Source: Candidatus Saccharimonadota bacterium
Lineage (GTDB): Bacteria > Patescibacteriota > Saccharimonadia > Saccharimonadales > Saccharimonadaceae
Reading direction: 5' to 3'
Assembly (NCBI GenBank): GCA_001029695.1
Contig: CP011211.1
Coordinates: 150,001-182,000, forward strand
Length of the DNA stretch: 32,000 bases
In this document: positions 7,127-22,943 of the stretch, one piece after another
Numbering within the stretch: position 1 is the stretch's first letter
Layout: each line of letters begins with the position of its first letter
The notes under the pieces: model-generated
Database searches by the model: none
Seen by the model: the letters and a program-made list of their open reading frames with translations, nothing else
What the model was told of the DNA's origin: nothing
Program-made: the position numbers and the translations under genes

Positions 7127-7127
7127 A

Positions 7128-7774: not shown

Positions 7775-7775
7775 A

Positions 7776-8012: not shown

Positions 8013-8014
8013 GA

Positions 8015-9066: not shown

Positions 9067-9067
9067 A

Positions 9068-9481: not shown

Positions 9482-9747
9482 TACTTCTTATCCTTTCCAC
9501 CGTGCTTGCGGAACTTACGAGTTGGGCTAAACTCACCGAGTTTGTGACCAACCATATTTTCCGAGACAAGTACAGGTACGTGTACGCGACCGTTGTGAAC
9601 AGCGATCGTGCGGCCTACCATCTCTGGGGTGATCGTGCTAGCACGAGCCCAAGTTTTGATGATAGTACGATCATCAGGCGTCAAAGCCGCCACTTTTTTA
9701 GCGAGCTTGGCGTCGATGAATGGGCCTTTTTTGAGTGATCGACTCAT
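9481..9747 (-). CDS. rpsS: 30S ribosomal protein S19 (uS19)
   Basis: Starts [12 protein letters not shown] and contains …[26 protein letters not shown]. Confidence 0.97.
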
Positions 9748-9750
9748 ATA

Positions 9751-10590
9751 CTACCTCTTCCTCTTCGCATCATGGCGACTTTTAACAATCAACTTGCTGA
9801 CGTCTTTACGTCGGCGAGTTCGGTATCCAAGAGTCAACTGACCCCATGGAGTACGTGGTGGCTTACCACTACCGTGTCGTCCACCGTCACCACCACCGTG
9901 AGGGTGATCTGTCGCGTTCATCACGACACCACGAACACTTGGGCGAATACCCTTGCGTCGATTACGACCGGCAGAACCGATTTTAACGTTTTGGTGCTGT
10001 ACGTTACCGACAACGCCAAGTGCAGCAGTCGCTTCCAATCGGAATCGACGAACTTCACCTGATGGAAGACGAACCATCGCATAGTCACCTTCTTTAGCCA
10101 TCAACTGGGCTTTTGTACCAGCTGAACGTACCATCTGTGCGCCCTTACCAACTTGGATTTCGATCGCGTAGATCTGTGAACCAACTGGAATCTTTGCAAG
10201 TGGCATACGGTTTGAAGACTCGATTGGAGCTTCAGGACCGCTGACGATTGACTTACCCTTGAACATGCTGGTATCAGCAAGTACGTAGTGGTAAAGACCG
10301 TGCTGATCTTTGATACGAGCAATACGTGCAGAACGGTTTGGATCGTATTCAATCTCTTCGATCGTTGCAACAGTACCTGGCGCAAGTTTGTGATTCATCA
10401 GACGATGATGTCGTTTGACACCACCACCACGGTGACGCACAGTGATGCGACCAGTATTGTTACGACCAGCGTTTTGCTTCTTACTCTTGATCAGACTTTT
10501 TAGTGGCTTACGAGTTGTAATCTCACTATAGTCTTCACTTGTCATGCCTCGTCGAGCTGGAGTGGTTGGGTTGTAAGCTTTAATTGGCAT
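9751..10590 (-). CDS. rplB: 50S ribosomal protein L2 (uL2)
   Basis: 279 aa, contains …GRNNTGRITVRHRGGG… and …MNATDHPHGGGDGG…. Confidence 0.97.
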   Translation of the reverse strand: MPIKAYNPTTPARRGMTSEDYSEITTRKPLKSLIKSKKQNAGRNNTGRITVRHRGGGVKRHHRLMNHKLAPGTVATIEEIEYDPNRSARIARIKDQHGLYHYVLADTSMFKGKSIVSGPEAPIESSNRMPLAKIPVGSQIYAIEIQVGKGAQMVRSAGTKAQLMAKEGDYAMVRLPSGEVRRFRLEATAALGVVGNVQHQNVKIGSAGRNRRKGIRPSVRGVVMNATDHPHGGGDGGRHGSGKPPRTPWGQLTLGYRTRRRKDVSKLIVKSRHDAKRKR

Positions 10591-10907
10591 TACTTCTTCT
10601 CCTCTTCAGTTGCAGGCTGATCAAATACTTGGATACTGCTTCCGGCAGCAAGAGTGACATACGCCTTCTTGTTGTCTTTGCGGTTCGTTGTACCTGGGTA
10701 GCGGTTCTTTCCTCGTGAGAATCGAACAGCTTTACCAGATTGAACGAGTGTTTTGATTCGCTCTACTTTTACTTCAAACTGAGCTTCCACAGCTGCAGCA
10801 ATTTCTTGCTTATTTGCAGTTAGTGGAACATTAAATACGTAAACATTGTTTTGTGACTGAGCATAGGCTTTCTCAGATACACGTGGGATAACGCTGATAA
10901 GTGTCAT
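10590..10907 (-). CDS. rplW: 50S ribosomal protein L23 (uL23)
   Basis: 105 aa, …YVFNVPLTANKQEIAAAVEAQFEVKV…. It lies between rplD and rplB. Confidence 0.94.
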   Translation of the reverse strand: MTLISVIPRVSEKAYAQSQNNVYVFNVPLTANKQEIAAAVEAQFEVKVERIKTLVQSGKAVRFSRGKNRYPGTTNRKDNKKAYVTLAAGSSIQVFDQPATEEEKK

Positions 10908-10908
10908 A

Positions 10909-11529
10909 TTACGCCTCCTCCTTTACTAACCAGCTTTTGATAACTGGAACGGATTTAGTCGATAGTACGATCGCATCAGCATTAAGGATGTGATACACAC
11001 TGAGGTATGTTGCGCGAACTAGTAGAACATTCTGGATGTTATTAGTTGCACGAATCAACTCAGGTGTTTTCTCGTCAACAACGATAAGTGTACGACGTGC
11101 GTACTTGTTGTCAGCGAGGAATTTCACTACTTCAGCTGTTTTACCAGTTGTTTTGACGTCTTGTACAAACACCTTCTTTGCTTCATTAGCAAGAGTAAGT
11201 GCCTGCTTCACTGCAACGCGTTTGCTTGTTGTAGAGAGTCGCTTTGAGTAATTTTCATTACCGCGTGGACCAAATACAACACCACCACCGCGCCAGATAG
11301 GGTTTCGTGTCGAACCAAAACGTGCTCGACCAGTACCCTTCTGCTTCCATGGTTTCTTACCACCACCGCGTACTTCACCACGCTGCAAAGTTGTAGCACT
11401 TGCTTGGCGTGAGTTTGCGAGGTAGCTATCGTAAGCAAGCTTCAATAGTTCGTGGTTTTGAACCTCGACATTGAAAACCTCTGTAGGTAGGACAGTTTTA
11501 GCTGTCGTAGTTTTAGTAGTCTCAGCCAT
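10909..11529 (-). CDS. rplD: 50S ribosomal protein L4 (uL4)
   Basis: 206 aa, …GGGKKPWKQKGTGRARFGSTRNPIWRGGGVVFGP…. Confidence 0.96.
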   Translation of the reverse strand: MAETTKTTTAKTVLPTEVFNVEVQNHELLKLAYDSYLANSRQASATTLQRGEVRGGGKKPWKQKGTGRARFGSTRNPIWRGGGVVFGPRGNENYSKRLSTTSKRVAVKQALTLANEAKKVFVQDVKTTGKTAEVVKFLADNKYARRTLIVVDEKTPELIRATNNIQNVLLVRATYLSVYHILNADAIVLSTKSVPVIKSWLVKEEA

Positions 11530-12143
11530 TATGCCTTTCCTCCAATTACGATAAGACCCTTACGTGGCCCAGGAACTGCTCCCTTAAGACCAATAAGGTT
11601 GTTCGTTGCATCGACATATGCCACTTCAAGGTTCTTTACAGTTACGCGATCAGCGCCCATACGGCCGGCCATTCGCTTACCCTTAAAGACCTTTTGTGGA
11701 TACATTGATCCAATTGAACCTGGCTTACGGACATTTCCGTTTCCACCATGTGTGCTTTTGCTTGTCGCAAAATTATGTCGTTTTACCGTACCGGCAAAAC
11801 CTTTACCCTTGCTTGTACCAGTCGCATTTACCATGTCGCCTAGCGCAAACTGAGTTACGTCGATCGTGTCACCTACCTTGAGACCTTCTGGTAGTTCTGC
11901 AACACGAAATTCCCGAATGTGTTTCGGGGTCACTTTAGCTGGACTGGTGTGTCCAGCAACGGCCTTGCTCAGGTTCTTACCCTCACCATATGCCACTTGA
12001 ACTGCGGTATAGCCGTCGATATCGACAGACTTGACCTGAGTCACAGTCACTGGGCCAGCTTGAATAAGCGTGACAGGAACTGCCTTGCCATCTTCGCTGA
12101 TGATTTGGGTCATACCAATTTTGGTACCGAGAAGTGCTTTCAT
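11529..12143 (-). CDS. rplC: 50S ribosomal protein L3 (uL3)
   Basis: 204 aa from the ATG at 12143: MKALLGTKIGMTQI…. GGAGCAAAGAGGG lies upstream as the SD. The track's GTG at 12161 would sit inside that SD. Confidence 0.95.
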   Translation of the reverse strand: MKALLGTKIGMTQIISEDGKAVPVTLIQAGPVTVTQVKSVDIDGYTAVQVAYGEGKNLSKAVAGHTSPAKVTPKHIREFRVAELPEGLKVGDTIDVTQFALGDMVNATGTSKGKGFAGTVKRHNFATSKSTHGGNGNVRKPGSIGSMYPQKVFKGKRMAGRMGADRVTVKNLEVAYVDATNNLIGLKGAVPGPRKGLIVIGGKA

Positions 12144-12167
12144 TGCCCTCTTTGCTCCCACTTAAAA

Positions 12168-12220
12168 CTCTTGGTGAGAGGTGGTTTCTCATCTGTTGAG
12201 ACCTACCAATTCACCAAGAG
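12168..12220 (-). promoter_or_regulatory. Terminator-like hairpin in the rplC 5' leader (candidate attenuator)
   Basis: Perfect 10 bp arms CTCTTGGTGA (12168-12177) and TCACCAAGAG (12211-12220) with a 33 nt loop. On the mRNA strand it is followed by UUUUAAG, about 25 nt before the rplC ATG. Confidence 0.45.
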
Positions 12221-12252
12221 CAGATTGTTATTACGTAATAAGTTACCATCGA

Positions 12253-12281
12253 ATTGTAGCACAGATACAGGGGTAAGTCAA
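12253..12281 (-). promoter_or_regulatory. Near-consensus promoter for the rplC…secY operon
   Basis: The minus strand reads TTGACT (12281-12276), a 17 nt spacer, then TACAAT (12258-12253). Confidence 0.6.
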
Positions 12282-12317
12282 CTAGTTAGGACACATTTTA
12301 CGATAATACGGCGGGTA

Positions 12318-12346
12318 TTGTATTACCTTTATAAATGTTTTATAGT
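12318..12346 (+). promoter_or_regulatory. Promoter of small ORF P1, divergent from the rplC promoter
   Basis: TTGTAT (12318-12323), a 17 nt spacer, then TATAGT (12341-12346). Confidence 0.55.
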
Positions 12347-12420
12347 CATACACTGTTTATTCCGTTTAGAAATAAATTGAGTAGACACGTACTTTGCCAC
12401 CGACAAACTAAGGAATCTCC

Positions 12421-12720
12421 ATGACAAACGATAACGATGACTTCGACAATCAAGAGATAGCAATCCTTGACATGCTTATGCGAGACTTTCATGATCAAGA
12501 CATTATCTCGTCGGTCGAAGACCTCATTAGCGTGCTTAACGATCATGCTATGCCAAAGCAGAGTCAATCGACAGGATCCAATAGAGTAAGTGAAACTACA
12601 CTTGGGGTAGTTTCAATCCTTGCAAGTGCCAGGCCTGATCTCTTCGGAGTTGAGATGCTCCGCCGTTATGTAGTTTTCTATGACAGCTGCAGGGACACCT
12701 CAGAAGACAGCCCTCGCTAG
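12421..12720 (+). CDS. Small orphan protein P1, 99 aa, very acidic N-terminal half
   Basis: ATG preceded by AAGGAATCTCC (SD). It has its own promoter and terminator. 12 of the first 42 residues are D/E. The C-terminus contains YVVFYDS. Confidence 0.6.
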   Translation: MTNDNDDFDNQEIAILDMLMRDFHDQDIISSVEDLISVLNDHAMPKQSQSTGSNRVSETTLGVVSILASARPDLFGVEMLRRYVVFYDSCRDTSEDSPR

Positions 12721-12787
12721 AGTCAAGAGAGAGGTAAGCAAGTACGCATCGTCGGAGGCCTGCACATACAGTGACCTCCGGCACGAC

Positions 12788-12813
12788 GCCCCACTTTCGA
12801 GTGGGGCTATTTT
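12788..12813 (+). terminator. Intrinsic terminator of P1
   Basis: GCCCCAC (12788-12794) pairs with GTGGGGC (12801-12807), followed by TATTTTA. Confidence 0.6.
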
Positions 12814-12821
12814 ATATCAGG

Positions 12822-12850
12822 TTGAATTGCGCGACGCATGAGAATATAGT
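12822..12850 (+). promoter_or_regulatory. Promoter of small ORF P2
   Basis: TTGAAT (12822-12827), a 17 nt spacer, then TATAGT (12845-12850). Confidence 0.55.
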
Positions 12851-12902
12851 ATCGTACCTGTATGCTGTTGGATTCCCACGGCAAGTACACCAAGGAGTAG
12901 CC

Positions 12903-13244
12903 ATGACTGAACAGCGCGTGCGTGATCTCGTCACTCCAGAAACGATGTTAGTTATACACGCCAACATAGATGACGATTCAAGATCACGGCTTGAAATCAA
13001 TGTATTTCACCACCCTACCTATGCCCCTCAATTCGATAGGCGCAACCTGCTGTTTGCCCCTGTAGTAAGAGACGAGTTCGATACCCCTCAGAATCCGCAC
13101 ATCGTCCAGATCATGGGTGGGATGCCGGAAACATTCGACTCCGACACAGTCATACAGTTCTACGACGATGGAGCAGTACGCTTCGCCACTGTCTGTGGCT
13201 TCGAACAGAAACCAAGCCCACATCCAACTCTTACCACGCCGTAA
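12903..13244 (+). CDS. Small orphan protein P2, 113 aa
   Basis: ATG at 12903 preceded by CAAGGAGTAGCC (SD). The track's longer form starting at 12771 would begin inside the P1 terminator and run through the P2 promoter, so it is rejected. Contains VIQFYDDG near the C-terminus. Confidence 0.6.
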   Translation: MTEQRVRDLVTPETMLVIHANIDDDSRSRLEINVFHHPTYAPQFDRRNLLFAPVVRDEFDTPQNPHIVQIMGGMPETFDSDTVIQFYDDGAVRFATVCGFEQKPSPHPTLTTP

Positions 13245-13280
13245 GAGTCATCAAAAGTCTCGCCCCATGCGAGAAACACC

Positions 13281-13325
13281 TTCCGCCACTCTCGTCGAGA
13301 AACTCCGAGAAAGGCGGAGTTTTTT
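13281..13325 (+). repeat. 3' module copy 1 of 4 (hairpin terminator plus upstream arm repeat)
   Basis: TTCCGCC-ACTC-TCGTCGAG-AA-ACTCCG-AGAAA-GGCGGAGT-TTTTT. Compare the copies at 14084, 14649 and 19069. Confidence 0.7.
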
Positions 13326-13354
13326 AATTCCTAAAGCACCATTTAAGTGCAGTT

Positions 13355-13534
13355 ATGATCTCTGCTACTATCAGTCTCGGTAGGTCATCTCAAGTAACTG
13401 TATCCTCTGGGACTACATCTCGAACGATCACTATACCTGATCTGTTCATGCAAATCGATTCCATGTACGAAGACTCTGTCATTGATGAACTAGCTAACAT
13501 CCAGAGATCTGCTCGAGAGGGAAATCTCTCGTAA
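13355..13534 (+). CDS. Possible 59 aa ORF P3, or a gene remnant
   Basis: My translation is MISATISLGRSSQVTVSSGTTSRTITIPDLFMQIDSMYEDSVIDELANIQRSAREGNLS, below the track's length cutoff. A clean terminator follows. I found no promoter and no convincing SD. Confidence 0.25.
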   Translation: MISATISLGRSSQVTVSSGTTSRTITIPDLFMQIDSMYEDSVIDELANIQRSAREGNLS

Positions 13535-13552
13535 ACAGCCTCGCAAAGTCAC

Positions 13553-13579
13553 GAAAAGTGCCTCTTGCGAGGCACTTTT
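13553..13579 (+). terminator. Intrinsic terminator
   Basis: Perfect 9 bp stem AAGTGCCTC/GAGGCACTT with loop TTGC. The terminal TT of the 3' arm begins the run TTTTT (13575-13579). Confidence 0.65.
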
Positions 13580-13598
13580 TATATCCCAAACATAAAAA

Positions 13599-13627
13599 TT
13601 GATTCATACATAATAATATGATATAAT
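13599..13627 (+). promoter_or_regulatory. Promoter of P4
   Basis: TTGATT (13599-13604), a 17 nt spacer, then TATAAT (13622-13627). Confidence 0.6.
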
Positions 13628-13638
13628 TATGTATATGC

Positions 13639-13656
13639 TCATCACTATTTTGATGA
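13639..13656 (+). promoter_or_regulatory. Palindrome TCATCA-N6-TGATGA in the P4 leader (operator or 5' stem-loop)
   Basis: TCATCActatttTGATGA, starting 11 nt after the -10 element. Identical half-sites occur at the same offset upstream of P5. Confidence 0.5.
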
Positions 13657-13701
13657 TACTTCATTCGACATAGCGCCGAATTGTACCTTACAGGAGAAAC
13701 T

Positions 13702-14055
13702 ATGCGTCAGCTACCCAGTTACTTTCATGAAGTACCTTTCATCGATGTAGGCGAACTTGTGTATAGGCAACGAGTAATCATCGTTGATAGCACCGGCAAT
13801 ATTCATCTTTTTGCCAAAGATACCCCTCCCTACTCACTCAAATGCCAAAACCCAGAGCACGCTGGGTGCAGGAAACGAGGCATCCGCGCACGCTTCATAC
13901 ACCGAGGTAAGCCATTGAGCATTCAAGTTAAAGGAGCTTGTCACACCGATCCTCCGATACGTCTTTATGTGCAGAAGCTTGGTACTCTCGAGCTAACGCC
14001 TAAAAAGATTATCAACCTCGTGAACCGGCAAACAGCCAAAAAGATTCTTCAATAA
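13702..14055 (+). CDS. Small orphan protein P4, 117 aa, paralog of P5
   Basis: ATG at 13702 preceded by CAGGAGAAACT (SD). The N-terminal block VIIVDSTGNIHLFAKD and the later LTPKKI / LVNRQ blocks align with P5. Confidence 0.65.
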   Translation: MRQLPSYFHEVPFIDVGELVYRQRVIIVDSTGNIHLFAKDTPPYSLKCQNPEHAGCRKRGIRARFIHRGKPLSIQVKGACHTDPPIRLYVQKLGTLELTPKKIINLVNRQTAKKILQ

Positions 14056-14083
14056 GACTGCAGCGCCGCTATAATAATCCATC

Positions 14084-14129
14084 ACTCCGTCCCTTCGTCG
14101 AGCCAAAACTCCGAAGAGGCGGAGTTTTT
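14084..14129 (+). repeat. 3' module copy 2 of 4
   Basis: ACTCCG-TCCCT-TCGTCGAG-CCAAA-ACTCCG-AAGA-GGCGGAGT-TTTT. Confidence 0.7.
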
Positions 14130-14135
14130 ATATTA

Positions 14136-14164
14136 TTGTAATATTAGATATTATATGTTATAAA
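14136..14164 (+). promoter_or_regulatory. Promoter of P5
   Basis: TTGTAA (14136-14141), a 17 nt spacer, then TATAAA (14159-14164). Confidence 0.55.
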
Positions 14165-14174
14165 AGTATTGCAT

Positions 14175-14192
14175 TCATCAGTAATTTGATGA
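14175..14192 (+). promoter_or_regulatory. Palindrome TCATCA-N6-TGATGA in the P5 leader
   Basis: TCATCAgtaattTGATGA, starting 10 nt after the -10 element. Confidence 0.5.
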
Positions 14193-14237
14193 CATGCCCT
14201 AATTTGAATCAGCTTCAAATCGCACCCAAGGAGAATC

Positions 14238-14636
14238 ATGAGTATGTTCACTGAACATTACAAGAGCGTCCCCTCCCTCAATCTCAACAGTGTGCTGTCT
14301 CCAATGCACTTCGTCATCGTCGACATCGCCGAAAATGTACACCTTTTCAGCAAGGGCATGCAGCGCAATGTCATCTACTTGATCGGTACATCATTGAGAA
14401 TCGATAGCCCCTCACAGGGCACCATGCGCATCAGCCAAGGATCACTCATCCACCCGATGCACACTTGGCATATCAGTGAGCGAGGCAATGTAAATCCGCA
14501 ACAACTGACACCAAGGGAAATTTACTTCGAGAGTAGACGCCCTGTCGGTGAAGATTCACGTTCTAGCTTTGAACTCGTTAACGAACAGTTCGGTAATAAG
14601 CTGATTGATCTGGGTATGTTGCAAAACGTCCGGTAG
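14238..14636 (+). CDS. Small orphan protein P5, 132 aa, paralog of P4
   Basis: ATG preceded by AAGGAGAATC (SD). FVIVDIAENVHLFSKG, LTPREI and LVNEQ align with P4. Confidence 0.65.
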   Translation: MSMFTEHYKSVPSLNLNSVLSPMHFVIVDIAENVHLFSKGMQRNVIYLIGTSLRIDSPSQGTMRISQGSLIHPMHTWHISERGNVNPQQLTPREIYFESRRPVGEDSRSSFELVNEQFGNKLIDLGMLQNVR

Positions 14637-14648
14637 TTCCTGCTACCT

Positions 14649-14695
14649 ACTCCGCCCTCTCGTAGAGCCTAAAGACTCCGAGGAGGCGGAGTTTT
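14649..14695 (+). repeat. 3' module copy 3 of 4
   Basis: ACTCCGCC-CTC-TCGTAGAG-CCTAAAG-ACTCCG-AGGA-GGCGGAGT-TTT. Confidence 0.7.
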
Positions 14696-14724
14696 AATTT
14701 GTCCGAGGAGAGTATACTAGAAGT

Positions 14725-15501
14725 ATGAAGATCTCCCGCCCGCATCGTCTCAATCCTTTGATTATGATAACTGTCATCATAGCCGTTATCCTAGCTGCCG
14801 GCGTTGTGTGGTGGCTCCTCAAATTCCAGACGGCTGCGCCTAAAAAAGCTCCCGACCCGCAGGTATCATCCGAGCCTCAGACTGTCGTATCACCGCAACC
14901 TAGCTTTGATAAAAAGCTATACTCAACAATTGACCCTACTAGTCTTTGGGTTATCGTCAACAAGCAGCATCCACTCACCCCAATAGACTTTACTCCGGCT
15001 GATATCATCACCGGACTTGATGGCTATGCATACAGTCAACGCATCGACACGTATCTTCGTGCACTGTTCAAAAAAGCCGAGACAGATGGTATAGCAATCA
15101 GTCTCACCAGCGCATTTCGTCCTTTTAGCGGGCAACAGACTCTCTATCGTAACTATGCCGCCCAGTACGGACAGGCGACCGCAGATACCATCAGCGCTCG
15201 TGCGGGTTATAGCGAGCACCAGACAGGGCTCACGGTAGACATTAGCGGATCTAGTCAGCCAACGTGCAACTTCAACCCATGTTTTGTCGACACAGCCGAA
15301 GGAAAATGGCTCGCCCTAAACGCACGCGAATTTGGATTTATCGTTCGCTACACTGCTGGCAATGAAGATATTACGGGCTATAACCCAGAAGCATGGCATC
15401 TACGCTATGTCGGCACAGAGCTTGCATCAATACTCGCGAAAGAAAAGATAGACACCCTCGAAGAATTCTTCAACGTCAAAGGTGGAAAAGTTTACAAATA
15501 A
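14725..15501 (+). CDS. VanY / M15B-family D,D- or L,D-carboxypeptidase, membrane anchored
   Basis: N-terminal TM segment. Motifs SAFRPFSGQQTLY, SEHQTGLTVD and EAWHLRYVG match the Zn-peptidase VanY/LdcB pattern. Confidence 0.85.
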   Translation: MKISRPHRLNPLIMITVIIAVILAAGVVWWLLKFQTAAPKKAPDPQVSSEPQTVVSPQPSFDKKLYSTIDPTSLWVIVNKQHPLTPIDFTPADIITGLDGYAYSQRIDTYLRALFKKAETDGIAISLTSAFRPFSGQQTLYRNYAAQYGQATADTISARAGYSEHQTGLTVDISGSSQPTCNFNPCFVDTAEGKWLALNAREFGFIVRYTAGNEDITGYNPEAWHLRYVGTELASILAKEKIDTLEEFFNVKGGKVYK

Positions 15502-15502
15502 G

Positions 15503-15844
15503 CTATAGGACAATGCCGGCTGGCACAAAGTAGCATATGATCGTCACAATAATAAGTGCAGCATACCAAATCTTACGATTGAGTTGATTCTTTTCTAGCG
15601 TCTTTATACCGACCAGACCAATGATCGTACCGAGAGGTATTCCACCAAGTGGCAGACCAAGCCATAGCACAGGAGTACTCAGCTTGAGCCATAGCGTCCC
15701 CAGTATGACGACACAGACGAGCTTTAAGAAGTATTGCCCGTCACTCTCAAGTACTAATGAATTGCCTCGTCGACTTACTAATGCTCGGTTCCGTGCGTAC
15801 GTACGAGGGCGTTTTTTCTTTAATTGTTTTTGTGTTTGCGCCAT
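15503..15844 (-). CDS. Small membrane protein, 113 aa, basic N-terminus and about 3 TM segments
   Basis: ATG at 15844 preceded by AGGGAGTTT (SD). Hydrophobic segments LVCVVILGTLWL, LGLPLGGIPLGTIIGLVGI and WYAALIIVTIICYFVPAGIVL. Confidence 0.55.
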   Translation of the reverse strand: MAQTQKQLKKKRPRTYARNRALVSRRGNSLVLESDGQYFLKLVCVVILGTLWLKLSTPVLWLGLPLGGIPLGTIIGLVGIKTLEKNQLNRKIWYAALIIVTIICYFVPAGIVL

Positions 15845-15955
15845 AAACTCCCTCAACTATAGCAAACCGATAATCATAAGTACAATGGCTTGCGCCTCTT
15901 GGTTATATTTGCGATAATGCATGCAGTTACTCTATTTTTAATAAAAGGATGTTTT

Positions 15956-16309
15956 ATGGCTACGACCAAGGCAAAATCGACGAAAACCGCTAAACCGACC
16001 ACAAAAACGGCAAAGAAAGCTCCCGTAAAAAAGAAGACCGCGACACGTGCTGCATCGACAAAGAAAGCACAGCCACAGTACCGATCACTCCATGTATCAT
16101 CGCCCGACAGGCCATTTCTTAGCTTTAACGTCACACGACAGACATTCTACTGGCTTATCATCCTTGCACTCGTACTAGGATTAGGCGGCTGGGTTATTAG
16201 TCTCCAGATCAAAATCAACGACCTCTACAATAAGATCGAAGAAAATCAACAATCTATTAGTACATACCAGACTATGGAACTAGCAGCAAAGAAAAAAGCC
16301 GCACGTTAA
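15956..16309 (+). CDS. Bitopic protein, 117 aa: Lys/Thr/Ala-rich N-terminus, one TM segment, then a predicted coiled coil
   Basis: ATG at 15956 preceded by AAAAGGATGTTTT (SD). MATTKAKSTKTAKPTTKTAKKAPVKKK…, TM segment FYWLIILALVLGLGGWVISL, then IKINDLYNKIEENQQSI. The topology resembles FtsB/DivIC; this rests on topology only. Confidence 0.55.
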   Translation: MATTKAKSTKTAKPTTKTAKKAPVKKKTATRAASTKKAQPQYRSLHVSSPDRPFLSFNVTRQTFYWLIILALVLGLGGWVISLQIKINDLYNKIEENQQSISTYQTMELAAKKKAAR

Positions 16310-16340
16310 AGAGCCAGCAGCCATAATCCGTGTAAAGTAA

Positions 16341-16372
16341 AAAATAAAACGCTCATTGAGCGTTTTATTTTT
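16341..16372. terminator. Bidirectional terminator between the bitopic-protein gene (+) and rpsJ (-)
   Basis: ATAAAACGCTC (16344-16354) pairs with GAGCGTTTTAT (16358-16368). A-runs and T-runs lie on both sides. Confidence 0.7.
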
Positions 16373-16388
16373 ATCTGTGACTATCTAA

Positions 16389-16712
16389 TTACATTCGGAT
16401 TTCTGCATCGACACCAGCTGGAAGGCTGAGGTTCTGCAGGCTGTCAATTGTCTTTGGCGTTGCATTTGTGATGTCGATAAGACGTTTGTGAACACGCATC
16501 TCAAACGCTTCTCCACCTGTCTTGTAAACGTGTGGTGACTTAACGACCGTAAATGTGCTACGACGTGTTGGTAGTGGCACTGGACCAGCGATACTTGCAC
16601 CAGTACGGATAGCCGTATCGATGATTTGCTTTGCTGATTGGTCAATAACTTTGTGATCGTATGCCTTTAGGCGAATACGAATACGTAGGCCTGCTGCTTG
16701 CTTATCTGCCAT
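16389..16712 (-). CDS. rpsJ: 30S ribosomal protein S10 (uS10 / NusE)
   Basis: 107 aa, …[26 protein letters not shown]…HKRLIDI…. SD AAAAGGAGTTATCTC. Separated from rplC by 4.2 kb. Confidence 0.96.
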
Positions 16713-16805
16713 GAGATAACTCCTTTTATGTGCTACGCTGTAACCTCTTCTCGGAGTTAAAGATATACCGGACGAGTTCTCAACGTGATTTAATAATACC
16801 TAGCT

Positions 16806-16834
16806 ACTATACACTATCCGACACTTATGCGCAA
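16806..16834 (-). promoter_or_regulatory. Promoter of monocistronic rpsJ
   Basis: The minus strand reads TTGCGC (16834-16829), a 17 nt spacer, then TATAGT (16811-16806). Confidence 0.5.
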
Positions 16835-16851
16835 CGAACGCAATATATACA

Positions 16852-16880
16852 TTGACTTTACAAAGTAATTATGCTATAAT
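16852..16880 (+). promoter_or_regulatory. Promoter of P6, divergent from the rpsJ promoter
   Basis: TTGACT (16852-16857), a 17 nt spacer, then TATAAT (16875-16880), with TGc immediately upstream (extended -10). Confidence 0.65.
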
Positions 16881-16952
16881 TCATCTACTATCTCGACCAG
16901 AGGTGGTGAACCTGCGATTACCTTATCGCAAACAATTCGAGAGGAGCAGGCA

Positions 16953-17252
16953 ATGTCCGAAATGTTGGTTAAAGCAGACAAGCGGTCTATTGTCGTTCTC
17001 AGTGATCTCACACAGCAATACGAAAGTCATGCTCGTATTAGCAAACGCCCCACAACTTCAATCTGCATCGCAAGGAGCAATGAAGACGGGAGCGAGCTAG
17101 ATATCGAGTCCGCTTCATTTCTTATCGAAAGTACGAGCTACAGCAGAAGATACAAAGCGGTAGTGATTCTCGGTAGGGTTGACGATGACAAAGTCATTGT
17201 TCATTTCTACGACAACCGACGTATCATGCCGCGCATATACCCAAGAGAGTGA
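16953..17252 (+). CDS. Small orphan protein P6, 99 aa
   Basis: ATG preceded by GAGAGGAGCAGGCA (SD). The C-terminus contains KVIVHFYDN. Confidence 0.6.
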   Translation: MSEMLVKADKRSIVVLSDLTQQYESHARISKRPTTSICIARSNEDGSELDIESASFLIESTSYSRRYKAVVILGRVDDDKVIVHFYDNRRIMPRIYPRE

Positions 17253-17275
17253 GCATCACTTGAACCTCTCTCCCA

Positions 17276-17323
17276 CCCCTTCAAGTCTACTACTGGAATA
17301 GTATATGACTTGGAGGGGTTTTT
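17276..17323 (+). terminator. Terminator of P6
   Basis: CCCCTTCAAGT (17276-17286) pairs with ACTTGGAGGGG (17308-17318, one G-U pair), then TTTTT. An upstream ACTTGAA (17258-17264) could alternatively pair with TTCAAGT. Confidence 0.6.
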
Positions 17324-17324
17324 A

Positions 17325-17353
17325 ATGACAATAGTTAATTATTATGATATAGT
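17325..17353 (+). promoter_or_regulatory. Promoter of the P7 unit
   Basis: ATGACA (17325-17330), a 17 nt spacer, then TATAGT (17348-17353). Confidence 0.5.
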
Positions 17354-17435
17354 ACGCATAACTCTTCGCTACCGTGAAGAGAGTACGCCTAGAGTTTAGA
17401 CTCGGCAATACAATCTGGACAGAGAGGCGCAAAGC

Positions 17436-17534
17436 ATGATAAAAAATAAGCTACTAAGATTCGTTTGCTGGCTAATGGTTGTGGTATTTCCCGCAGAGCC
17501 ACCCGAAAAGGGGCCTTACAACCGCATACCTTAA
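17436..17534 (+). CDS. Possible 32 aa hydrophobic upstream ORF in the P7 leader
   Basis: My translation is MIKNKLLRFVCWLMVVVFPAEPPEKGPYNRIP. GAGAGG lies 8 nt upstream. It stops 23 nt before the P7 ATG. Confidence 0.3.
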   Translation: MIKNKLLRFVCWLMVVVFPAEPPEKGPYNRIP

Positions 17535-17557
17535 ATACTAGCCCGAGAGGAAAAACA

Positions 17558-17899
17558 ATGAGCGACAACGAAGAAACACTGCAACTACTCGCAAAAGCGT
17601 TATTCGTAGAAGCAACGAGCATTCATGCTAGAATGCAACGAAACGGCCTGGACATCAAAACAACTGATTTCCTTTTAGCCAAGGTAAGCAAGCTGCTTGA
17701 CCACCACGGCTTAACTGATGATCCGGTAGTTAGCAAGGAAGTTAACCTCTCCACTATTGCTGACATCGTCAATAACGATCTTGGCAAAAACTCCACCTTC
17801 GAAGTGGTATTCGAGGTACAGTATAGAGCACCGGAAGATAGAACATCAGTGCCTGCTCCATGCTACACAGGTCGATACAGGCATCCGATTCCATCATGA
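17558..17899 (+). CDS. Small orphan protein P7, 113 aa
   Basis: ATG at 17558 preceded by GAGAGGAAAAACA (SD). The track's TTG start at 17465 lacks an SD. Confidence 0.6.
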   Translation: MSDNEETLQLLAKALFVEATSIHARMQRNGLDIKTTDFLLAKVSKLLDHHGLTDDPVVSKEVNLSTIADIVNNDLGKNSTFEVVFEVQYRAPEDRTSVPAPCYTGRYRHPIPS

Positions 17900-17940
17900 A
17901 AGGTATTCGAGGATATGGCTATTCGCCTCTCTGTCCTCGT

Positions 17941-17983
17941 CTACAGAACAGTCAATTATAACGATCAATTGACTTGTCTGTAG
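17941..17983 (+). terminator. Long hairpin after P7; no U-tract
   Basis: 17 nt arms (17941-17957 / 17967-17983) pair at 15 of 17 positions, with a 9 nt loop. It directly abuts the P8 promoter. Confidence 0.4.
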
Positions 17984-17993
17984 ACGATGAAAT

Positions 17994-18022
17994 ATGACAA
18001 GTGGACATATTTACCGTATAAT
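17994..18022 (+). promoter_or_regulatory. Promoter of P8
   Basis: ATGACA (17994-17999), a 17 nt spacer, then TATAAT (18017-18022). The imperfect palindrome GTATCAC-N3-GTGTTAC follows. Confidence 0.5.
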
Positions 18023-18101
18023 TATAAAAAGAGTATCACACCGTGTTACGTACCTTTCGTTCAAGCGCTCGCTTATAACGACCACTCGAAAAGAGAGAAC
18101 T

Positions 18102-18503
18102 ATGCCAATTTCGTACCTACTTATGGTAGCTCGATGGCTGTACAGAGTTATCACAGGCAATGAGCCGACGTATCATAAGGGCTACGAAGTCGCCCAAGTG
18201 AAGGTTGCGGAAATCCATGATGCCACCCCAAAAGCAATCCTTACGGAGGCTATTAAGGCGGCAGACGTGGTAGCGAGCGTCATGAGAAAGTCAAAGGACG
18301 ATATAGAGGTTGAGATAACACCATTTCCCTCTACTAGTGGACTAAGCTATTTGGAGATTACCCATCTTTTAGAAAGCTTAACCGCCACCACGACCCGAAC
18401 AGGACTGCAATTCATTCATCTCATCGAACGGAGAGCATACTTCAGTAGGGCTGACGGTCAGCACGCAGGCTCAGTAAACACCGAGTACTACGAGCAACAC
18501 TAG
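18102..18503 (+). CDS. Small orphan protein P8, 133 aa
   Basis: ATG at 18102 preceded by AAAAGAGAGAACT (weak SD). The start is uncertain; the track's ATG at 17994 lies on the predicted -35 element. Confidence 0.5.
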   Translation: MPISYLLMVARWLYRVITGNEPTYHKGYEVAQVKVAEIHDATPKAILTEAIKAADVVASVMRKSKDDIEVEITPFPSTSGLSYLEITHLLESLTATTTRTGLQFIHLIERRAYFSRADGQHAGSVNTEYYEQH

Positions 18504-18524
18504 CCATCCATAAGACAGAATTAC

Positions 18525-18586
18525 AAACCTCGCCTCACGGTAGTACCTCGCGGTTCTTCTGGAATTGGCGAGGTTTTACCTTTTTT
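18525..18586 (+). terminator. Terminator of P8, with a duplicated 5' arm
   Basis: AAACCTCGCC (18525-18534) pairs with GGCGAGGTTT (18567-76), then TACCTTTTTT. The loop carries a second arm copy, ACCTCGCG (18545-18552). Confidence 0.55.
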
Positions 18587-18605
18587 CACCCATACTCGCC
18601 GATAT

Positions 18606-18634
18606 TTGATGAAATAGACAAAGCCTTATATACT
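18606..18634 (+). promoter_or_regulatory. Promoter of P9
   Basis: TTGATG (18606-18611), a 17 nt spacer, then TATACT (18629-18634). Confidence 0.55.
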
Positions 18635-18689
18635 TATATGTAGAGATGGGAGTACTCATCTTTCGGATCTTTGCACCTCAGACCACATC

Positions 18690-19079
18690 ATGTATGTGCC
18701 GACAACGGATGAAGACATGAAGTCTCAAGCAATAAACGCTCCAGGTTCAGCTGACGCTGAGTACAGAAAAACACAGTCGGCAAAAATAACCAGGGACAAT
18801 AAGAAAGAGCTGGCTATTCGACTCGCGCAAGAGTTCAAAAACCGCTCGCGCCATTCGCCCAGCCTCCTACAGGCTACGATCAGCTTTCGGTCCATCCAAA
18901 GAATATGGATCAAAGATGTTTCGGCATTGACTCACCGGATATATGCGTGGCAAGACACAAAGACACTCCATGAAATTGCAGACCTTGCAACGAGTAGCTT
19001 TACTGGCTTGCAGGCAAACTTTATCATCTCTTACGACCCAGAGGACAGCATTTTCCGCTACCAACACCACTCCGCTTAA
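18690..19079 (+). CDS. Small orphan protein P9, 129 aa
   Basis: ORF with its own promoter and terminator module. There is no clear SD at 18690; an alternative ATG lies at 18717. The C-terminus contains NFIISYDPEDSIFRY. Confidence 0.5.
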   Translation: MYVPTTDEDMKSQAINAPGSADAEYRKTQSAKITRDNKKELAIRLAQEFKNRSRHSPSLLQATISFRSIQRIWIKDVSALTHRIYAWQDTKTLHEIADLATSSFTGLQANFIISYDPEDSIFRYQHHSA

Positions 19080-19116
19080 TTCGTCGAGAAGTAATTCTCC
19101 GAGAAGGCGGAGTTTT
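19069..19116 (+). repeat. 3' module copy 4 of 4; overlaps the last codons of P9
   Basis: ACTCCGC-TTAAT-TCGTCGAG-AAGTAAT-TCTCCG-AGAA-GGCGGAGT-TTT. Confidence 0.7.
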
Positions 19117-19149
19117 ACATTTATAATCACCCTAAAAGCACTATCACAC

Positions 19150-19181
19150 AAAAATACCCCTGATCGCTCAGGGGTATTTTT
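19150..19181. terminator. Bidirectional terminator between P9 (+) and tuf (-)
   Basis: Perfect 13 bp stem AAAATACCCCTGA (19151-19163) / TCAGGGGTATTTT (19168-19180) with loop TCGC. Confidence 0.75.
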
Positions 19182-19198
19182 GTAAGTTAGAGAACTAA

Positions 19199-20383
19199 CT
19201 ATTTGTTGATCTTAGTAACAACACCGGCACCAACAGTTCGGCCACCTTCACGAATAGCGAAGTTTAGACCCTGCTCCATAGCGATTGGCTGAAGGAGAGT
19301 AACCTTGAATGTCAATGTGTCACCAGGCATAACCATTTCTTTGTCAGCTGGAAGTTCAACTTCACCAGTAACGTCAGTTGTACGGAAGTAGAACTGTGGC
19401 TTGTAACCCTTGCTGAATGGTGTATGACGTCCGCCTTCTTCCTTCTTAAGGATGTAGACTTCTGCTTCAAATTCAGTGTGTGGGTTTACAGAACCTGGCT
19501 TAGCAAGAACCTGTCCACGCTCAACCTGATCACGCTCGATACCACGAAGGAGAAGACCTGCGTTGTCACCAGCTTGACCTTGGTCAAGGTTTTTCTTAAA
19601 TGCTTCGATACCAGTTACAACAGAACTCTGAGTAGCTTTGATACCAACGATTTCGATTGGATCGTTTAGCTTGATGATACCCTGTTCAATACGACCGGTA
19701 GCAACTGTACCACGTCCCTTGATTGAGAATACATCTTCGATAGGCATAAGGAATGGCTTATCAAGGTCGCGTACTGGCTCTTCAACGTAGCTGTCAAGAG
19801 CAGCAACAAGTTCCATGATCGCTTCTTCAGAAGCTGCATCACCTTCGAGGGCCTTAGTAGCAGAACCCTTGATGATTGGAGCGTTGTCACCATCGTAACC
19901 GTTCTTAGTAAGAAGTTCGCGAACATCCATTTCAACAAGCTCTACGAGTTCTGGATCTGCAAGATCCATCTTGTTTAGGAAAACAACGATCTTTGGAACG
20001 TTTACCTGGTGAGCAAGAAGAACGTGCTCACGAGTTTGTGGAAGTGGACCATCGTTTGCAGCAACAACGAGGATTGCTCCGTCGATCTGCGCAGCACCGG
20101 TGATCATGTTCTTTACGTAGTCGGCGTGACCTGGCATGTCAACGTGTGCATAGTGACGTGCTTCTGACTCGTATTCCTGGTGAGATGAAGCAATCGTGAT
20201 ACCACGAGCTTTCTCTTCTGGAGCGTTGTCAATCTCGTCGTAGTTACGAGGTTTGTTAGTTTCGCTTGGAAGCTTCTTTGCAAGCACGTGTGTGATTGCT
20301 GCTGTCAAAGTAGTCTTACCGTGGTCAACGTGACCCATAGTACCAACGTTGACGTGAGGCTTGGTTCGATCGAAATCTGCCAT
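19199..20383 (-). CDS. tuf: Elongation factor Tu
   Basis: 394 aa, [23 protein letters not shown] and NKMD GTPase motifs. SD AGGAGATATAATCCACA. Confidence 0.98.
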
Positions 20384-20493: not shown

Positions 20494-21168
20494 TTACGGC
20501 AACGACTCAAAATAGCTACTGTAGTGAGTAAGATAGTGACCCTCGAGCGCTTGAGCGTACATTACAGGCTCCCCACCTAAGACGTCTGTAGCATATGCAA
20601 GCCGACGAAGCGTATCGATGCATTTTTTCTCGGAATCCAACTGATATTCAAATGACTCAAAATCAGGACGTAATAGCGATGACTTAATATCTCGTGCAAC
20701 ATATTTTTGTAAACAAAACCCATACTGACAATTCACATCATTATTATTAAGAGTCACCCTACAGCTGTCCAGTTCGTGACGACTCTCTTTGGGCAAGACA
20801 ACATCATACGCCCTTGGTAGCCAATCATCGATTTCTTCACGTGTATGCGTTTCCTCGTAGGCGGGTATTATCACGTCGTAAAACGCACGACGAAACTGTT
20901 CCTTGCCACTCTCCTCATCTCTCTCGAACTCCTCTCGAGAAGGAAGAACTCCCTTTTCTAGCAAGTCGCCGACAAAGTCATCTGCAAATGAATCCAACTG
21001 GTCGAGACTCCAAGCTCCATCCTCATAACCCGGAAGAATAAACTCTTGATAAACGTAGCGCTGAAATGCCATATGTATAGTTACGTAGTCTTTGCAATGA
21101 TGTAAATCGCTAAAGAGTACATAGACTGGAGGTTTTTCGTGATTCATTTCGCCGTTCTCATAACTCAT
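20494..21168 (-). CDS. Hypothetical acidic cytoplasmic protein, 224 aa (237 aa if it starts at the TTG at 21207)
   Basis: Long ORF, third gene of the fusA-tuf island. Rich in D/E (e.g. EEFERDEESGKEQ). No domain recognised. Start uncertain. Confidence 0.55.
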   Translation of the reverse strand: MSYENGEMNHEKPPVYVLFSDLHHCKDYVTIHMAFQRYVYQEFILPGYEDGAWSLDQLDSFADDFVGDLLEKGVLPSREEFERDEESGKEQFRRAFYDVIIPAYEETHTREEIDDWLPRAYDVVLPKESRHELDSCRVTLNNNDVNCQYGFCLQKYVARDIKSSLLRPDFESFEYQLDSEKKCIDTLRRLAYATDVLGGEPVMYAQALEGHYLTHYSSYFESLP

Positions 21169-21210
21169 AGTACATGAGACTATACGCCGAGATTCATGTA
21201 AATTCAAGTA

Positions 21211-22284
21211 CTATTGAGCGTCGTCGTCAAGCGCAGCTGCAACTTGGCGTATAAACACAACAAGCCATCCAAAGATGATACCAGCAGCGATAAGTTCAAA
21301 CGTCGTCAAGTTAAAGTATTCAAGTCCAACCCATAGCCAGTAACACAAGATTAATACGCCCATTAAAGCGTACGACAATGCGAAGAAGGCTTTAGAAAAT
21401 GATGGCACAAGAAGTGGCAGCGCGATGATAAGTCCTACGAAAAGGACTGCCATACCGCCTGCAGCTGTATTATGTAAAAGCGGATCAGTGTCGTAAGCAA
21501 AGACACCCACAAGTGCCAAAAAGATACCGATGAGCGCAAGTACTACGCGCACAGCAGTTGTCTTAGCCTTTTTATACAAGAGTGCCTTTTGCTTCAGCTT
21601 TGCAAAGTCTTCAGCTATATAGTCAGAAAGACTCACGATCACCGCCCCAGCAATAATAAGCGTAATGTTAAACGCATAAGAAGACGCGGAATCGCCCGCG
21701 CCAAGTGCACTAAAGTGGCGTTGCCACCAGTACGGATCCTCGGCAGTAATCATACTCGTCAGTGCACCGCTCACGAGAAACACAGCAAGTGCCGTCGAAA
21801 TACGTAGGGTTGTCATCTGAGCAGCCACGAGATATATAATATAGCTCAACACAGCTACTGTCGTTGCGACAATCGCCGAAGCAGCATACTGATCAAGAAG
21901 TAACCCCCTAAAGGCATCGTGAATAATAAAAAAGGCACCAGCCAACAGCAGGAAGCTAATAGATGCATGCACAAATGCAAGCGCCATTGTCGTCAATGCT
22001 AAGTGTAATTTCTGAGCGCGGCTTCGCTTCACCGCTTCGCGTACTCGAGTCGATGCAATCATATAGCCCACAAAAGCCGCAATTGTACCAAGAACTGCCG
22101 CCGCAAGCCCAACTGACCCATCCCGCCCAAAGAGTGGAACTGCCGGACTTTGAAAATAGAGGTAGCTTGCAATGAGCGACGCGATGAATGTCGCTCCGCC
22201 GTAGTAAATAGCCCGCGTCTCGATCGAACGACTAGTGCGACTAGTGGCGCTCAATGCCTTTTGCGTTTTTGGAGATTTCGTCAT
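21211..22284 (-). CDS. Polytopic membrane protein, 357 aa, about 10 TM segments, unknown family
   Basis: ATG at 22284 (MTKSPKTQK…). By eye there are ten hydrophobic segments. TGcTATAGT lies 6 nt upstream of the ATG. The upstream 45 codons in the track have no support. Confidence 0.6.
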   Translation of the reverse strand: MTKSPKTQKALSATSRTSRSIETRAIYYGGATFIASLIASYLYFQSPAVPLFGRDGSVGLAAAVLGTIAAFVGYMIASTRVREAVKRSRAQKLHLALTTMALAFVHASISFLLLAGAFFIIHDAFRGLLLDQYAASAIVATTVAVLSYIIYLVAAQMTTLRISTALAVFLVSGALTSMITAEDPYWWQRHFSALGAGDSASSYAFNITLIIAGAVIVSLSDYIAEDFAKLKQKALLYKKAKTTAVRVVLALIGIFLALVGVFAYDTDPLLHNTAAGGMAVLFVGLIIALPLLVPSFSKAFFALSYALMGVLILCYWLWVGLEYFNLTTFELIAAGIIFGWLVVFIRQVAAALDDDAQ

Positions 22285-22449
22285 GCCACAACTATAGCAT
22301 GCCCCTCGTTGAGAATCATAGCTACCAGCTCCTATTCGTTTCGTCCTTTGTAGACTCCTAAGAATCGGACTCATCAGAACAATTTTTAATTGTTGACGAA
22401 TAGAGCACATGGCGACCAAGCTGATTACTTGGCCGCCGAAGAAAAGATA

Positions 22450-22887: not shown

Positions 22888-22943
22888 AGTAGCTCTTTTC
22901 TGTGCTCGTAAGGTGCGAGTGAAGTATATCACTGCATATTAAT

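Follow-up and report, generated by a model that had tools for sequence, protein, structure and literature searches.

The transcription-unit junctions of a fragmented ribosomal gene cluster in a Saccharibacteria (TM7) genome are probably gene-turnover hotspots, which hold moron-like cassettes and almost no mobile-element genes. The region in question is a stretch of 32,000 nucleotides (assembly GCA_001029695.1, contig CP011211.1, positions 150,001 to 182,000 of the forward strand), hereafter the window, in which nine small open reading frames (ORFs), P1 to P9, lie on the plus strand on both sides of rpsJ, the gene for ribosomal protein S10 (NusE). These ORFs behave as coding sequences, one cassette has been duplicated in tandem, whole cassettes have been gained or lost, and the junctions vary between species.

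The window was assigned to the str/S10 region of a Saccharibacteria genome by a search with S10, whose best relatives were nearly all Saccharibacteria or carried no phylum label. For comparison, the best 80 species-representative loci by rpsJ/S10 search were used, in which S10 is 84-97% identical. In textbook bacteria, the fusA, tuf, rpsJ and rplC genes sit in two contiguous operons (str and S10). In the window, the minus strand carries in order rpoC (3' end), rpsL, rpsG, a 4.2-kb insert, fusA, a 2.6-kb insert, tuf, rpsJ and rplC-rplD-rplW-rplB ... secY; the plus-strand ORFs P9 to P6 lie between tuf and rpsJ, and X139, M117 and VanY, followed by P5 to P1, lie between rpsJ and rplC. The cluster is therefore split at every transcription-unit junction sampled in the window.

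Coding evidence for the nine ORFs

A first reading of the sequence, referred to here as the original prediction, had proposed nine small plus-strand ORFs around rpsJ, all of which were found at the positions it gave:

12421-12720, plus strand, P1, 99 amino acids (aa), acidic (isoelectric point (pI) 4.2), soluble
12903-13244, plus strand, P2, 113 aa, acidic; Shine-Dalgarno (SD) sequence AAGGAG
13355-13534, plus strand, P3, 59 aa; doubtful gene
13702-14055, plus strand, P4, 117 aa, basic (pI 10.1); paralog of P5
14238-14636, plus strand, P5, 132 aa
16953-17252, plus strand, P6, 99 aa
17558-17899, plus strand, P7, 113 aa
18102-18503, plus strand, P8, 133 aa
18690-19079, plus strand, P9, 129 aa; without an SD sequence

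In both gaps, the plus strand has four ORFs that reach 95 aa or more, and the minus strand has none. After dinucleotide shuffling, 0.2-0.35 such ORFs were obtained per strand, and 0 of 300 shuffles yielded four. With a codon log-likelihood trained on the conserved genes of the window and compared over six frames, the own frame scored highest in all nine ORFs and in none of 31 shadow ORFs, and the codon scores of the nine were similar to those of nearby non-ribosomal genes.

A strain contig, L083, which has the same gene content as the window and is 97.7% identical to it over 7.2 kb (window positions 12118-19361), keeps all nine ORFs intact, and the two single-base indels between them both fall outside the ORFs. 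The pooled strain differences comprise 35 synonymous and 50 non-synonymous changes, giving a ratio of non-synonymous to synonymous polymorphism (pN/pS) of ~0.41 (binomial P = 7.5e-5 against neutrality). Against L083, pN/pS was 0.10 for P9, 0.25 for P8, 0.34 for P6, 0.38 for P7 and 0.40 for P5; for P4 it was 1.19 against L083 versus 0.42 against a further contig, L081. Codon position 3 accounts for 8 of 11 strain differences in P8 and likewise in P9, and P1 has a single difference, too few for a selection test. Gene tables of related contigs list P1, P2 and P4-P8 (P1 being called in L083 at the same coordinates); a strain variant of P4 (P0002) and P9', the counterpart of P9 in the sister-species contig L150, are also called as genes.

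That the ORFs might be chance ORFs, non-coding RNAs or decayed pseudogenes could be argued from their lack of homologs in family libraries, from P3 and P9, which, as originally predicted, have no SD sequence and which are uncalled on L083, from the unusable single-sequence AlphaFold2 model of P8 (predicted local distance difference test (pLDDT) 39.6) and from P3, which shows neither promoter nor polymorphism. This is made highly improbable by the excess of ORFs over shuffled sequence, the preference for the own frame in nine of nine cases, the intact ORFs and synonymous-biased change across strains, the ratio of non-synonymous to synonymous substitution rates (dN/dS) of 0.22 for P7, and the diverged syntenic orthologs of P5, P7, P8 and P9, in which the frames are kept. 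Codon signal and conservation in relatives, without which the original prediction was to be given up, are both present. P3 is the exception: its own frame scores best, yet it has no promoter (score 7.0) and no SD sequence, it is not listed in the gene tables of L083 or L084, and the strains do not differ there. P3 may be a decayed cassette or an RNA, and whether this one ORF is a gene is about an even call. Together, these sequence comparisons indicate that at least eight of the ORFs (P1, P2 and P4-P9) are true genes; they encode small, soluble, fast-evolving proteins of a narrow lineage.

Predicted promoters, leaders and terminators

For eight of the nine ORFs, the highest-scoring sigma-70-like site upstream on the sense strand has a 17-nt spacer, and the hexamers agree with the original prediction, in which six -35 elements read TTGNNN and two ATGACA. 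Promoter scores reached at least 10 for P4-P8, 9.5 for P2 and P9 and 8.5 for P1, with no candidate for P3. Random segments of the same size scored 8.1 on average, 5% of them at least 10, and the probability that at least five of nine ORFs reach a score of 10 by chance is ~3e-5. The predicted sites are as follows:

12318..12346, plus strand, P1 candidate promoter TTGTAT-17-TATAGT, weak, near the null mean
12822..12850, plus strand, P2 promoter TTGAAT-17-TATAGT
13599..13627, plus strand, P4 promoter TTGATT-17-TATAAT, extended -10 TG
14136..14164, plus strand, P5 promoter TTGTAA-17-TATAAA with TG, homologous to the P4 promoter
16852..16880, plus strand, P6 promoter TTGACT-17-TATAAT with TG, 11/12 matches
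17325..17353, plus strand, promoter of the unit of P7 and a small ORF (sORF, see below) ATGACA-17-TATAGT with TG, conserved in the sister species
17994..18022, plus strand, P8 promoter ATGACA-17-TATAAT, 11/12 matches
18606..18634, plus strand, P9 promoter TTGATG-17-TATACT

The -10 element lies 72-79 nt ahead of the ATG in P1, P4, P5, P6 and P8; P2 and P9 have a shorter distance of 52-55 nt and P7 a longer one of 204 nt, in agreement with the earlier description of five similar leaders, two shorter ones and one of about 200 nt. Folding z-scores (z -2.0 to -6.6) likewise bore out the claim that a hairpin follows each ORF: a stable hairpin was found 3' of all nine, with a U-rich tract in all but that of P7.

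12788..12807, plus strand, P1 terminator hairpin, then UAUUUUAU
13281..13326, plus strand, P2 terminator, copy of a repeated module, z -3.5
13553..13580, plus strand, hairpin after P3, z -4.45
14084..14130, plus strand, P4 terminator, copy of the repeated module, z -5.4
14649..14696, plus strand, P5 terminator, copy of the repeated module, conserved in contig L082
17275..17323, plus strand, P6 terminator, z -4.5
17934..17990, plus strand, 57-nt near-perfect palindrome/hairpin after P7, without a U tract, z -6.6
18525..18576, plus strand, P8 terminator, z -3.5
19091..19118, plus strand, P9 terminator, copy of the repeated module, with a homolog 3' of P9' in L150

The hairpin after P7, which stops 3 nt short of the -35 element of P8, has a conserved counterpart in the sister species (L150 736-789).

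These motifs support the view that most of the ORFs are predicted self-contained promoter-leader-ORF-terminator units, moron-like in architecture. The original prediction went further and held every cassette to be autonomous. The motif anatomy agrees with this for P2 and P4-P9 (for P1 it is weak), but P3 has neither promoter nor SD sequence, P7 stands behind the conserved sORF, and the 58 nt that separate P8' from P9' in the sister species contain no obvious promoter or terminator. A common origin of all cassette promoters and leaders was considered and rejected, as an alignment of seven upstream regions revealed homology only between P4 and P5.

Tandem duplication of a cassette and a repeated terminator module

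P4 and P5 are tandem paralogs with 23% identity, and their promoter, leader palindrome and terminator are more conserved than their coding sequences; the whole cassette was therefore duplicated in tandem. The palindrome, TCATCA-N6-TGATGA, lies 11-12 nt past the -10 element in both leaders:

13639..13656, plus strand, palindrome in the P4 leader
14175..14192, plus strand, palindrome in the P5 leader

Its right half is also found in the homologous leader of L082, and the palindrome may act either as an operator or, in the mRNA, as a 5' stem-loop. The terminator module, of ~45 nt and the form ...CTCCG-N(4-5)-GGCGGAG-U(4-6) with a shared upstream arm, occurs in four copies, after P2, P4, P5 and P9, and neither the rest of the window nor any of the 80 relatives has a further copy. 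It is kept in the strain contigs and in L082, and L150 has a diverged form.

An exhaustive HMMER search with a P4/P5 profile against 1.84 billion representatives returned only strain variants and one homolog of 129 aa (P0004). This homolog of P5 is encoded directly upstream of VanY on a contig of another species, with a P4-like leader and a P5-like terminator.

Syntenic orthologs and gain or loss of whole cassettes beside tuf

The region ahead of P7 holds a conserved small ORF:

17436..17534, plus strand, sORF of 32 codons, encoding MIKNKLLRFVCWLMVVVFPAEPPEKGPYNRIP, SD sequence GAGAGG, inside the supposed P7 leader

The encoded peptide is 78% identical at the amino acid level to that of the sister species, with 10 synonymous and 7 non-synonymous codon changes (dN/dS 0.09). 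Since this conserved sORF lies on the same predicted transcript ahead of P7, P7 would be the second gene of a small operon; the long leader originally ascribed to P7 is right as a distance, but contains this ORF. The 204-nt region as a whole is ~85-90% conserved between species with saturated synonymous sites. The 5' untranslated region of the sORF (17354-17435, plus strand) is itself ~90% conserved between species with saturated synonymous sites, and the hairpins predicted in it showed no covarying pairs. A possible relative of the sORF occupies the same position in L006 (9637-9756, minus strand), with 11 of 32 residues identical in an ungapped comparison that is not significant by BLAST.

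Several of the neighbouring genes can be traced beyond the strain level. A profile search with P7 retrieved four clusters among 5.8 billion sequences, including a 63%-identical ortholog in L150 (P0009), and the syntenic ortholog in L006 is 24-29% identical. P8 has syntenic orthologs with 41% identity (L151) and about 24% local identity (L006), and P9 has a weak syntenic match to P9' in L150 (27% over 56 aa, pairwise E 5e-4). The description of the nine as orphan genes fits their narrow lineage, but P4 and P5 are paralogs of each other, and P5, P7, P8 and probably P9 have highly diverged syntenic orthologs in one or two related species. That several genes can be traced to such orthologs points to rapid divergence and argues against de novo birth.

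In the sister species the order is an unrelated ORF at the P6 position, the sORF, P7', P8', P9', an acyl-carrier-protein-like (ACP-like) cassette and tuf. The unrelated protein is encoded by positions 1-366 of contig L152, upstream of the sORF and P7'. The ACP-like gene (PF00550) forms an extra promoter-ORF-terminator cassette at L150 1700-2170, whose insertion point falls precisely between the terminators of P9' and tuf; judged by its predicted boundaries, one module was cleanly gained or lost.

L006 (the metagenome-assembled genome MCT-ROC-43), the closest species representative, carries P7-like and P8-like genes beside rpsJ in the same order. On this locus (5200-14250), nine small opposite-strand ORFs lie in the tuf-rpsJ gap and seven in the rpsJ-rplC gap, and only two of the L006 gap ORFs are detectably related to genes of the window. 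The L006 locus contains 29 promoter-like sites versus 11.5 +/- 3.6 expected. Relative to L006, the rpsJ, tuf and rplC proteins are 92-97% identical, with dN of 0.02-0.06 versus ~0.9 for P7.

Variability of the junctions and a possible route of turnover

The junctions differ greatly in length across the 80 species:

tuf-rpsJ gap, 124-4937 bp, median 1236
rpsJ-rplC gap, 459-5916 bp, median 1875
fusA-tuf gap, 104-8040 bp, median 2301

The tuf-rpsJ gap is below 500 bp in 14 of 67 measured species, the smallest being 124 bp. P1-P9 are absent from the 80 relatives except for P7 and P8 in L006, and the P families are absent beside rpsJ in 79 of the 80 species; the survey of the rpsJ flanks in relatives proposed with the original prediction found both sizes and contents to be highly variable. 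More than half of the gap ORFs (153/283; blastp E <1e-3, greedy ORF caller) are singletons, and the families recurring in the rpsJ-rplC gap are three, X139-like, M117-like and VanY. The singletons of the 80 species lie on the opposite strand in 95 cases versus 50 on the same strand (P = 2e-4). Among the 121 singletons of at least 80 aa, 16 Pfam families were matched, with one member each, and the only mobility-like matches were one IS200 and one GIY-YIG.

The strains diverge in a mosaic pattern: some stretches of 300 nt contain 0-2 differences, others 16-20 (chi-square P = 8e-9). Between species, uninterrupted identical runs of 35-69 nt survive in the flanks. Natural competence has been described for cultured Saccharibacteria, which integrate DNA carrying ~1-kb homology arms by homologous recombination (PMC10633639). 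Transformable bacteria are enriched in hotspots that are poor in mobile elements and have recombining core genes at their flanks (PMC5635113). In the reading that we favour, each lineage of the phylum has filled these junctions with genes of its own, mostly without domains and mostly on the opposite strand. The array changes by tandem duplication (P4/P5 and the four copies of the terminator module), by gain or loss of whole cassettes and by fast divergence, and turnover would proceed via homologous recombination in the flanking genes, which are highly conserved; cultured members of the phylum are competent. The position beside S10 would be one where insertions are tolerated and exchanged, with no functional link to S10/NusE.

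Properties and possible role of the encoded proteins

As the original prediction had noted, the proteins show no transmembrane segment (maximum 19-residue hydropathy <1.3, all nine predicted soluble) and no recognisable domain, scans against Pfam, NCBIfam, PHROG and PADLOC giving no significant match. The sole PADLOC match, PDC-M24A for P6, had a non-significant E of 0.01, and PHROG gave no match below E 0.01. No match was obtained by tblastn against 50,697 phage records, nothing below E 0.01 in PDB profile searches with the P4/P5, P7 and P8 families, and nothing in IMG/VR for P8 and P9. The IMG/VR matches of P7 (L147-L149) were rejected, since they fall in a shadow frame of a phage tail gene with high GC content and were seeded by one octapeptide pattern. 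P1, P2, P3 and P6 had no homologs outside the narrow lineage by tblastn against 154 loci. Queries of the concatenated P1-P5 and P6-P9 proteins came back empty and carry no weight, as the near-identical P0001, P0002 and P0006 are present in that collection. Across positions 12000-19300, Rfam at E <=1 gave only three sub-threshold chance matches.

For the P5 family, an AlphaFold2 model from a five-sequence alignment is beta-rich with a C-terminal helix (pLDDT 67, predicted template modelling score 0.68). The Foldseek comparison recommended with the original prediction found no neighbour for it, the best E values being 0.26 (PDB) and 0.15 (BFVD) with TM-scores <0.35. Type II toxin-antitoxin pairs were considered and rejected: a hairpin and a promoter separate neighbouring genes, and the best match to a toxin-antitoxin family was VapC at E 0.09. 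With low confidence, we guess that the proteins have an accessory role in an arms race and act by binding in the cytoplasm, for example as immunity proteins, anti-defence proteins or host-interaction modulators.

Neighbouring genes and transcription units

The genes and regulatory sites that flank the arrays are the following:

12253..12281, minus strand, promoter-like site TTGACT-17-TACAAT with TG of the rplC-led operon, divergent from the P1 promoter, best antisense score 11
14725..15501, plus strand, VanY-type D-Ala-D-Ala carboxypeptidase (PF02557, 2.7e-37), in 23/80 relatives, a conserved resident of the rpsJ-rplC gap
15503..15856, minus strand, M117, conserved membrane protein of 117 aa, in 35/80 relatives
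15890..16309, plus strand, X139, conserved membrane protein with a Lys-rich N-terminus, convergent with rpsJ
16340..16372, bidirectional terminator common to X139 and rpsJ, perfect 16-nt inverted repeat
16389..16712, minus strand, rpsJ (ribosomal protein S10), apparently monocistronic, with a terminator at 16340-16372 and a promoter-like site at 16868-16896 (minus strand)
19141..19190, bidirectional terminator between P9 and tuf, z -7.4
19199..20383, minus strand, tuf (EF-Tu), conserved flank

By these motifs, rpsJ, tuf and rplC appear to belong to different transcription units, each with a predicted promoter or terminator of its own. The arrays would lie between transcription units and not inside them, and would not be read into the ribosomal operons, because rpsJ and tuf have their own bidirectional terminators and the promoter-like sites of rplC and rpsJ are divergent from those of P1 and P6. 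In work on cultured Saccharibacteria, tuf and rpsJ each provided a predicted strong promoter, and the two were used separately (PMC10633639).

VanY, M117 and X139 all lie in the rpsJ-rplC gap and go unmentioned in the original prediction. X139 and M117, neither of which falls in a Pfam family, recur in this gap in about 25-35 of the 80 species. VanY has an unusually high pN/pS of 0.78 between strains (13 non-synonymous and 5 synonymous differences). Its start lies ~10 nt past a TATACT -10-like hexamer located 3' of the P5 terminator, and its leader may be very short. A metagenome scan with VanY found mostly distant relatives with at most 53% identity; on one short metagenome contig (L141), P4, P5 and the 51 VanY residues that it encodes are 100% identical to the window.

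The other two junctions are occupied as well. The 4.2-kb insert between rpsG and fusA (25196-29175) encodes SDR, YGGT, DUF520, DAGK and PAP2 proteins and a 263-aa ORF without a domain match. The 2.6-kb insert between fusA and tuf (20494-22932) encodes Y237, a DUF998 membrane protein and a 160-aa ORF without a domain; Y237, which also has no domain, has a 32%-identical homolog in L006. Nucleotide similarity to window positions 20500-23000 was found in 0 of the 80 relatives.

Evaluation of the turnover hotspot and of alternative explanations

Several points weigh against reading the junctions as turnover hotspots. P7, P8, P9 and the P5 family keep their positions in related species, and part of the array is old and vertically inherited. 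The GC content of the arrays is like that of the flanks (0.44-0.49 versus 0.43-0.50), with no mark of recent foreign origin. Recombination through the flanks is deduced from the mosaic divergence of one strain pair, and the variability was measured between species, not in a within-species pangenome, with a crude greedy ORF caller that may have produced some spurious singletons. Promoters and terminators are motif predictions, that of P1 being no better than chance, and the guess at function comes without a secretion signal, partner toxin or defence match.

A compatible proposal would sharpen the hotspot reading into a recombinase-free, integron-like exchange platform whose cassettes are moved by natural transformation. 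It would account for gain and loss exactly at terminator boundaries, for the repeated terminator modules, for the mosaic strain divergence and for conserved flanks with long exact runs, and it agrees with the competence of cultured relatives (PMC10633639), the small soluble products and a P4 pN/pS of up to 1.19. Set against these are the shared P5, P7, P8 and P9 families, which look vertically inherited, with no interspecies transfer observed; the proteins match no defence or immunity family and show no secretion signal or toxin partner; and dN/dS values mostly <0.4 are those of weak purifying and not diversifying selection. We consider such a platform unlikely. Its most specific form, in which portable small immunity, anti-defence or host-manipulation modules are swapped between strains and species by natural transformation, with tuf, rpsJ and rplC as near-universal homology arms, is a shade less likely still.

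It is improbable that the arrays are the remnant of a prophage or mobile element, that is, true phage morons or a defence/anti-defence island. Small, fast-evolving promoter-ORF-terminator units that match nothing known are typical of phage accessory genes, and the gaps of one relative contain an IS200 transposase and those of others GIY-YIG and T5orf172 domain matches. However, phage databases, PHROG and PADLOC gave no match, the Pfam scan of the window ORFs found no integrase, recombinase or transposase, the window has no tRNA, the GC content is the same as in the flanks, and codon usage is like that of other non-ribosomal genes.

The original prediction drew attention to an array wrapped around the NusE/S10 gene and transcribed against the ribosomal operons, and a dedicated system tied to S10/NusE or the ribosome, in which head-on placement couples expression to the ribosomal operons, would follow that lead. 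What speaks for it is position, as small genes lie on both sides of rpsJ here, in L006 and in several other species. The lead did not hold up: gap content is unrelated between the 80 species (the 153/283 singletons), the fusA-tuf junction is equally variable, the tuf-rpsJ gap can shrink below 500 bp (14/67), and rpsJ and tuf are insulated by terminators, the arrays diverging from or converging on them without overlap. Moreover, the P proteins evolve >10x faster than S10, unlike stoichiometric partners of a 97%-conserved protein. Such a system is very hard to credit.

Significance and comparison with known systems

If the hotspot reading is correct, the most conserved gene neighbourhood of bacteria (rpsL-fusA-tuf-rpsJ-rplC) would be broken at each sampled transcription-unit boundary and would serve as a reservoir of lineage-specific small proteins. 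It would mark the places in these tiny genomes to search for accessory functions, possibly connected with epibiotic life, and would supply the genetic tools of the phylum with candidate sites for insertion and with compact candidate promoters and terminators. What is new here is several protein families and a conserved 32-residue micro-protein without known relatives, and no new mechanism.

Like phage morons, the cassettes are self-contained small accessory units between conserved genes, gained or lost as whole modules. The original comparison with morons stands for the promoter-ORF-terminator architecture, but there are no phage neighbours or homologs and no compositional contrast. Unlike phage morons, some units here are old and syntenic across species, and their neighbours are rplC, rpsJ, tuf, VanY and membrane proteins.

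Integron arrays and the orphan immunity arrays of Bacteroidales (rAID-1) consist of co-oriented small genes, mostly of unknown function, with a hairpin-forming repeat 3' of several of them. The arrays in the window resemble them in their co-oriented small genes and in the repeated hairpin 3' of several cassettes. An integron array with attC sites was rejected as an explanation, as no recombinase domain was found in the ORFs of the 32-kb window scanned against Pfam, a promoter-like site precedes eight of the nine ORFs, and the repeat is a GC-rich, terminator-like hairpin with a U tract. Unlike in rAID-1 arrays, no recombinase lies in the window and no known immunity family was matched.

The genes also resemble the native orphan genes of a gut survey (PMC11293555) in being short, of narrow lineage, host-like in composition and under weak purifying selection. 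Unlike those orphans, they form dense arrays at defined junctions, and several have very diverged syntenic orthologs.

The closest parallels are with the hotspots described by Oliveira, Touchon, Cury and Rocha in 2017 (PMC5635113), which likewise hold different genes between the same conserved genes, with high turnover and few mobile elements; the arrays also show possible signs of recombination, in a phylum that includes competent members. These hotspots were defined within species, whereas our comparison is between species. Unlike in those hotspots, the arrays are flanked by translation genes of the highest conservation (fusA, tuf, rpsJ and rplC), and the cargo consists mostly of very small, individually promoted genes without domains on the opposite strand. 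Taken together, we conclude with moderate confidence that the junctions represent a variant of an already known genomic phenomenon, to which new families of small proteins are added.

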